Sequence record: KF241843.1
Reading direction: 5' to 3' (one strand)
Source: Escherichia phage phi-8
Length of the DNA: 5,035 bases
The translations under genes were made by a program, and so were the position numbers. Each line of letters starts with the position of its first letter. The stretch's first letter is position 1. Shown piece after piece: positions 2,031 through 2,076 of this stretch. The notes beneath the pieces were generated by a model. That model worked only from the letters and a program-made list of their open reading frames with translations. It had not been told where the DNA came from and made no database searches.

Positions 2031-2076
2031 TGGCTTTTCAGCCACGTAGTCGAGAGTCGACGTTGTTTAAAGAGCC
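2031..2076 (-). promoter_or_regulatory. nutL: nutL (boxA + boxB) on the leftward transcript
   Basis: Minus-strand RNA GGCUCUUUAAACAACG (boxA, plus 2061-2076), 16-nt spacer, then UGGCU-GAAA-AGCCA hairpin (boxB, plus 2031-2044). boxA close to the rrn/lambda boxA consensus GCTCTTTA; near-identical counterpart at nutR. Confidence 0.6.

Follow-up and report, generated by a model that had tools for sequence, protein, structure and literature searches.

Covarying GAAA-loop boxB hairpins in the putative nut sites of an H-19B/HK97-type N module from Escherichia phage phi-8

Delayed-early expression in lambdoid phages, Stx-converting ones included, is gated by N-dependent antitermination. The N/nut system of phage H-19B was reportedly studied by Neely and Friedman (2000), who are said to have named its spacer hairpin the 'reducer' and to have found that the pairing of this hairpin matters and not its sequence, and that this phage can do without boxA, NusB and S10. 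The H-19B system has also been studied by the Sen laboratory, and with NusA and NusG, H-19B N leaves a footprint over the spacer and boxB of nutR and brings about readthrough and antitermination from that site (PMC3526286, PMC4499122). The boxBs for which a complex with N has been solved carry a pentaloop (lambda, P22) or a hexaloop (phi21) that adopts a GNRA-like fold with a base looped out: lambda boxB has a GNRNA pentaloop with the fourth base extruded, and in the complex of the P22 N peptide with boxB (PDB 1A4T) the GACAA loop folds GNRA-like with the C looped out. For epsilon34, the genome paper spoke of a 'novel BoxB specificity', a guess made from the divergent N-terminus of the protein alone (PMC2629481).

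The DNA analysed here is a stretch of 5,035 nucleotides from Escherichia phage phi-8 (KF241843.1), referred to as the window. Across their entire length, bases 81–4985 show 99.7–99.9% identity to immunity regions from several Stx-converting lambdoid phages, near-identical regions being those of Stx2a_WGPS4, phage 2851, Stx2 phage 1717 and the Stx1 and Stx2-II phages of strain Morioka V526, and the N gene is 100% identical to that of phage Nil2. Judged by their sequence, the two ends (1–80 and 4986–5035) are cloning-vector polylinker and not phage DNA; bases 1–64 have a 100% match in a non-mobilisable E. coli plasmid of 3,004 bp. Since these ends, which we take to be the pGEM-T Easy polylinker, come from a vector, the window is a cloned PCR product carrying the immunity region. 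Its features are collected in Table 1. Between cI and pL, the position that corresponds to rexAB in lambda, lie ORFs of 173 and 40 aa, both without a Pfam match, and after them follows a strong intrinsic-terminator-like hairpin (AACCCGGC..GCCGGGTT plus a T-run; 2338–2359, minus strand). An Rfam search of the window (E ≤ 1) returned nothing at either nut site; the sole match was Lambda_thermo, the cIII mRNA thermoregulator, which aligned at full length to 681–739 on the minus strand (88.5 bits, E = 2.4e-21) and overlaps the cIII start.

Table 1 Features of the 5,035-nt window and parts of its two putative nut sites.
Feature	Coordinates	Strand	Remarks
gam	79-495	minus	
kil + cIII	450-726	minus	
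ea10	799-1167	minus	
83-aa ORF	1350-1601	minus	3' of N; no Pfam match
N	1660-1932	minus	90 aa + stop
nutL	2031-2076	minus	between pL-like promoter and N
nutL boxB UGGCU-GAAA-AGCCA	2031-2044	minus	pair 2 = G2043:C2032
nutL spacer hairpin GUCGA-CUC-UCGAC	2049-2061	minus	'reducer'-like
nutL boxA GCUCUUUAAACAA	2063-2075	minus	
pL/OL	about 2100-2200	minus	
pL-like promoter TTGACC-17-TACTAT	2122-2150	minus	consensus match only; coincides with AP005153 operator/promoter features
40-aa ORF	2365-2487	minus	no Pfam match
173-aa ORF	2661-3182	minus	no Pfam match
cI	3684-4343	minus	
cro	4454-4669	plus	first gene of the pR transcript carrying nutR
nutR	4680-4725	plus	directly after cro stop (4669), before cII
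nutR boxA CGCUCUUUGUAACAA	4680-4694	plus	
nutR spacer hairpin GGAC-AUUC-GUCC	4696-4707	plus	
nutR boxB UCGCU-GAAA-AGCGA	4712-4725	plus	pair 2 = C4713:G4724
cII start	4811	plus	
Intrinsic-terminator-like hairpin, leftward operon	1340-1361	minus	candidate N-readthrough target; pattern match only
Further terminator-like hairpins, leftward operon	1194-1215, 756-775, 408-425		pattern match only

Both sites are assembled from the same parts in the same order, namely a boxA (GCUCUUU..AACAA), a spacer hairpin, a CUACG linker and a 5-bp boxB with a GAAA loop. Written as RNA, nutL (minus strand, 2076 to 2031) reads G-GCUCUUUAAACAA-CG-UCGACUCUCGA-CUACG-UGGCU-GAAA-AGCCA and nutR (plus strand, 4680 to 4725) reads C-GCUCUUUGUAACAA-CG-GACAUUCGUC-CUACG-UCGCU-GAAA-AGCGA. 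They are placed as nut sites are, one per operon on the pL and pR transcripts, 3' of the promoter and 5' of the first terminators: nutL lies 40–85 nt downstream of the pL-like promoter (2150–2122) and just upstream of N, and nutR lies between the cro stop codon and cII. The 19-nt pattern CTACGTSGCTGAAAAGCSA occurs exactly twice in the window, at 2031–2049 on the minus strand and 4707–4725 on the plus strand (0.00 expected from 200 shuffles), and a pattern spanning boxA to CTACGT finds the same two places only (0.00 expected in shuffles). With the rrn and lambda consensus taken as CGCUCUU(U)A, the boxA elements of nutL (GGCUCUUUAAACAA) and nutR (CGCUCUUUGUAACAA) are both near to it. A 1-nt indel within boxA distinguishes nutL from nutR and is balanced by a 1-nt difference in the spacer, so that the distance from boxA to boxB is equal in the two sites. 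The inspected records that carry the same N type contain no nut-site annotation. Immediately upstream of the nutR boxA, a 6-bp hairpin (CCGCTT-AAT-AAGCGG, 4662–4676) extends across the cro stop codon, and its minus-strand reading was flagged as weakly terminator-like in our scan.

In isolation, each boxB is predicted to fold into five base pairs capped by GAAA, at −7.1 kcal/mol (z = −3.6) in nutL and −6.5 kcal/mol (z = −3.9) in nutR. From bottom to top the stem pairs are U-A, G-C or C-G, G-C, C-G and U-A; the second pair is G:C in nutL and C:G in nutR. An earlier, sequence-only reading of the locus had pointed to this difference with preserved pairing and to a GAAA loop at both sites, and the sequences bear out the former, the sequences and isolated folds the latter. 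The stem had been written there with 4 bp; the actual stem has 5 bp, the flanking U and A included. The same reading had stated that the spacer also matches, which is true of the flanks (AACAACG and CUACGU) and not of the inner 10–11 nt, which are unlike (UCGACUCUCGA vs GACAUUCGUC). It had moreover taken the covariation between the two sites as support for nut sites, an interpretation that the wider comparison below upholds, although a single compensated pair in two sequences is weak evidence by itself.

Among 80 viral contigs encoding an N at least 98% identical to that of the window, nutL is always UGGCU/AGCCA and nutR always UCGCU/AGCGA; the swap is therefore one fixed difference, and this set is uninformative about stem covariation. 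More distant relatives came from annotated phages found by tblastn, from a pattern scan of viral contigs and from contigs encoding a g341c-type N; a search of single genomes, one for each species, yielded only 4 loci with N relatives. As a guard against circular selection, sites were located by an anchor blind to boxB (CAAYG, 8–24 nt, CTACG), which yielded 154 distinct contexts. A perfect 5-bp boxB follows CTACG in 95 of the 99 contexts that have a spacer hairpin and in 0 of the 55 that lack one. Three of the four exceptions are of the SPN9CC type, with a 4-bp stem and a C.C-closed GUCAA loop, and the fourth is a chance match.

The MAFFT alignment placed the gap between tetraloops and pentaloops inside the 3' arm, so pair counting was limited to stem pairs 1–3. 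Across 48 distinct sites, pair 1 is U-A in 32, G-C in 8, A-U in 4 and C-G in 4; pair 2 is C-G in 26, G-C in 19 and A-U in 3; and pair 3 is G-C in 47 and U-A in 1. All cells are paired (100% vs 66% in shuffles), and the covariation score of 0.749 (0.135 in shuffles) is reached by 0 of 500 shuffles, a significance that these shuffle statistics overstate because the 48 sites are related by ancestry and not independent. When the register is slid, pairing falls to 43% or less. Pairs 4 and 5, checked by script, are invariant save for one U.G and the SPN9CC type. Where the pattern turns up within coding sequence of unrelated viral contigs, most matches do not pair. Even with shared ancestry allowed for, four Watson-Crick types at pair 1 and three at pair 2, always paired, require selection for pairing, so the boxB hairpin is under selection, and the compensated difference between nutL and nutR is real and ordinary for nut sites. 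Each boxB is thus a short stem with a GNRA-type loop whose pairing is kept in evolution, the loop having four bases where five are usual.

The spacer hairpins of the two sites (Table 1) have unrelated inner sequences, and in both of them the closing pair joins the G of ACAACG to the C of CUACG. The family has 28 distinct spacers, whose stems are of at least seven unrelated kinds (GGAC/GUCC, GGGC/GCCC, GGCC/GGCC, GUCGA/UCGAC, GGUGA/UCACC, GAUUC(A)/(U)GAAUC and GGAUUG/UGAUCC), and the terminal spacer stem averages 4.9 bp compared with 1.6 in shuffles. In phages that share this N, the nutL spacer always has the stem GUCGA/UCGAC, with a loop of CTC, ACTC, ACAC, GCAC or ATC. Dyad symmetry in the spacer and conserved ACAAYG and CUACG flanks are the marks of H-19B/HK97-type sites, and both are present here; the spacer hairpin of each site is apparently the counterpart of the H-19B 'reducer'.

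The ORF just 3' of nutL encodes a protein with an arginine-rich motif (FKGTAASRRRARRANLQ) and matches the Pfam family PF25694 (N_peptide) over residues 1–90 with 111.3 bits (cut-off 27.9; E = 3.4e-32). We place its start at 1932, at the Met from which homologues and the Pfam model align and which has GGAGG 5 nt upstream, giving a protein of 90 aa; database records annotate a longer ORF of 114 aa starting at 2004. This N shares about 40% identity with each of two other N proteins, those of HK97 and the 933W-like phage, and a C-terminal LPxVALYAAG(Y/H)RKSKQ(L/I)TAR is common to these three proteins and P22 gp24. A search of PDB sequences with the window N gave no match. The sequence-only reading had called the protein a P22-gp24-like N, which fits its C-terminus only, N and the site architecture being closer to HK97/H-19B. 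Of 5,426 complete E. coli genomes, 818 carry the module of N and nutL, and among the top matches listed the N gene is called a 'hypothetical protein' in RefSeq E. coli genomes; correct marking of the nut sites would be a useful annotation for this widespread module.

Loop length goes with the type of arginine-rich motif, with no exception in about 130 loci. N proteins with the motif RRR(A/E)(R/H)RAxLQ adjoin only GAAA or GCAA loops at both nut sites, and those with RRRERLKA(K/Q)A only five-base G-N-C-A-A loops, which are GACAA, or GUCAA at SPN9CC-type nutL; a lone N with RRRSRLKAQA, retrieved by a looser scan, adjoins a GGCAA boxB. The four-base loops in the relatives are GAAA or GCAA only, both of them GNRA. 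In Shigella phage 75/02 Stx, whose N is 86% identical to that of the window, nutL (about 5857–5905) has GCAA and nutR (opposite strand, near 4509) has GAAA, so that one N apparently accepts both GNRA tetraloops. The window loop equals the GACAA of H-19B/HK97 minus the C, and since the absent C is the base looped out in the P22 N-boxB complex, the window N probably recognises a plain GNRA tetraloop.

A pair of P22-like Salmonella phages, g341c (5800–6140) and SPN9CC (5800–6160), brings out how local the change can be. The 83 nt before the nutL boxB are identical in the two phages, as are 113 of the 114 nt from boxB to the N start, and the differences in the stretch of nutL and the N leader are limited to boxB (CGGCU-GAAA-AGCCG in g341c vs GCUC-C.GUCAA.C-GAGC in SPN9CC) and to the codons of the arginine-rich motif. 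At nutR the flanks are alike, and the loop and the first base of the 3' arm differ, with a closing pair of U-A vs U.G. The class changes are thus confined to the nutL boxB, the motif codons and the nutR loop, in surrounding DNA that is near-identical. We give about even odds to the proposal that there is a distinct natural class within the P22/HK97 N family, in which N with RRR(A/E)(R/H)RAxLQ would read a GAAA or GCAA tetraloop and N with RRRERLKA(K/Q)A a five-base G-N-C-A-A loop. The two classes would be interconverted by a one-base loop indel together with replacement of the arginine-rich motif. If they do not cross-react, they would form a compact natural case of coupled RNA-peptide specificity switching and, if the proposal is true, would set, as a barrier or a licence, whether N can function across Stx and other lambdoid prophages that reside in one cell.

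The local hairpins have a competitor in the predicted structure. Over the whole 63-nt site (2020–2082, minus strand; 4676–4738, plus strand), boxA is predicted to pair with the boxB 3' arm in the structure of lowest energy, at −14.2 kcal/mol vs −12.0 for the two local hairpins in nutL and −13.5 vs −11.7 in nutR (equilibrium values), and the boxB pair probability in the whole-site equilibrium fold is 0.13–0.32; the whole-site folds are no better than those of shuffles (z = −1.1 to −1.4). Such a helix could be functional, a switch that keeps boxB or boxA hidden as long as neither N nor the Nus factors are bound; the G/C difference would then serve it too. Apart from being the minimum-energy prediction at both sites, it can draw on the base before GCUCUUU, which is G in nutL and C in nutR, each complementary to the varying base in the boxB 3' arm. 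Relatives with the same nutL boxB (AGCCA) have G, U, A or C before GCUCUUU, however, and two nutR sites with AGCUA keep the C; with this base free in the relatives, the extra pair does not covary. The remaining complementarity between boxA and boxB follows automatically from the conserved GCUCUUU and GAAAAGC, and co-transcriptional folding favours the local hairpins, which makes a functional switch of this kind very unlikely in our judgement. A three-way covariation of the base preceding boxA with both boxB arms, considered for the boxA:boxB helix, holds in the window and fails in the relatives.

It is also very unlikely that the loop is no true tetraloop, either because it is a six-base UGAAAA loop on a 4-bp stem or because N opens the U-A closing pair, with a specificity like that of pentaloop boxBs. 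Covariation cannot prove closure, since the closing pair is invariant among tetraloop sites and the counts cover pairs 1–3, and one pentaloop nutR has U.G as its closing pair. Yet U-A closing a GNRA loop is the arrangement required by lambda N, as reported by Tan and Frankel (1995), the sole tetraloops seen (GAAA and GCAA) are both GNRA, and loop length strictly tracks the N motif type. That the hairpins arose by chance or exist for another purpose, such as termination or a protein-coding constraint, is scarcely credible: short hairpins are common, and the complement of the nutL spacer hairpin was flagged as terminator-like in a simple scan, but the shared 19-nt motif occurs twice where none is expected, no U-tract follows either boxB, and both sites are intergenic and oriented with the early transcripts. 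Strong stem covariation, in a pattern that is mostly unpaired in unrelated viral coding sequences, likewise argues for boxB.

We therefore retain the reading of nutL and nutR as the sites of the phage's N-dependent processive antitermination system, which we consider very probable. By analogy with lambda, P22 and H-19B, RNA polymerase starting at pL and pR would transcribe nutL and nutR, and N would be translated from the pL transcript. Homology suggests that the arginine-rich helix of N (about residues 9–25, GTAASRRRARRANLQ) would bind the loop and upper stem of boxB on the nascent RNA, and that NusA would then join, with NusG and probably with NusB/NusE at the consensus-like boxA. The N-Nus complex would stay on the polymerase and permit readthrough of the leftward terminator-like hairpins and of the tR1 region before cII, and transcription by the modified polymerase would lead to delayed-early gene expression. 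The top three pairs of the stem (G-C, C-G, U-A) and the loop are fixed and the two bottom pairs vary, as expected if the fixed part is contacted by N; the two lower pairs would need pairing only, which would leave nutL and nutR free to differ there (G:C vs C:G).

The origin of the difference is suggested by how the two sites are combined in other phages. The nutR core, comprising the UCGCU stem and the GGAC-AUUC-GUCC spacer, co-occurs with four nutL stems (UGGCU, GCGCU, CGGCU and AGGCU), so that the two sites have probably been passed on in separate mosaic modules, nutL together with the N gene and nutR as part of the cro-cII module. Given separate modules, the G:C/C:G difference most likely derives from different ancestors and was kept by selection for pairing, rather than arising by double mutation in the window phage.

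Overall, the window holds a genuine and ordinary N/nut system that follows the textbook plan. Its one modestly novel feature is a boxB with a plain GNRA tetraloop that goes with a distinct arginine-rich motif; the function of the system is inferred, and a tetraloop specificity class is plausible. Our literature search found neither a description of a natural GAAA boxB or of nut sites in phages of the Nil2, 2851 or Stx2-II type, nor experimental work on an N of the tetraloop class (epsilon34/g341c type); older papers may hold an earlier account. The strict association of tetraloop and motif offers a simple natural system for studying shifts in peptide-RNA specificity, and it bears on whether the N of one prophage could activate another in the same host.

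Measured against the known systems, the locus shares with lambda the arginine-rich helix, the GNRA-type fold, a 5-bp stem with a U-A closing pair, an upstream boxA and one site per early transcript; lambda has a pentaloop where the window has a tetraloop, and lambda N is without detectable sequence similarity to the window N. P22 gp24 belongs to the same Pfam family as the window N, with the C-terminal 24 aa conserved (79% identity). The upper stem of P22 nutL is GCU/AGC as in the window, and the stem sequences of P22 nutL and nutR also differ from each other with pairing kept. Unlike the window sites, however, the P22 sites are without a spacer hairpin and a CUACG linker and have a five-base instead of a four-base loop, and the loop of P22 nutR is C.C-closed. 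Epsilon34/g341c resembles the window in tetraloop class and architecture, with the motif GRRRERRAALQ and a nutL boxB of CGGCU-GAAA-AGCCG, and differs from it in an N of 120 aa that is about 39% identical, in the lower stem pairs and in the sequence of the spacer hairpin.

For H-19B, the nutR sequence (CGCTATTTTCACAATGGACATTCGTCCTACGTCGCTGACAAAGCGAGTCCC) was rebuilt from the published antisense oligos RS662-665 (Muteeb et al. 2012); its nutR and nutL are identical in the 933W-like Stx2 phage I and near-identical in HK97. The H-19B and window nutR have in common the spacer hairpin GGAC-AUUC-GUCC, the CUACG linker and the boxB stem UCGCU/AGCGA, and they differ in boxA and in the loop, which is one base shorter in the window (GAAA at both sites, compared with GACAA in H-19B/HK97 and the 933W-like phage). 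In H-19B, boxA is CGCUAUUU in nutR and nutL is without an obvious boxA, whereas the window has a boxA near the consensus at both sites. H-19B N has 127 aa with the motif RRRERLKAKALANG, compared with 90 aa and RRRARRANLQ for the window N, the two being about 40% identical, and the C-terminus of HK97 N (VALYAAGYRKSKQLTAR) is identical to that of the window N. The architecture of the sites is of the H-19B/HK97 type and not of the P22 type, and the window system is a member of the H-19B/HK97-type nut family.
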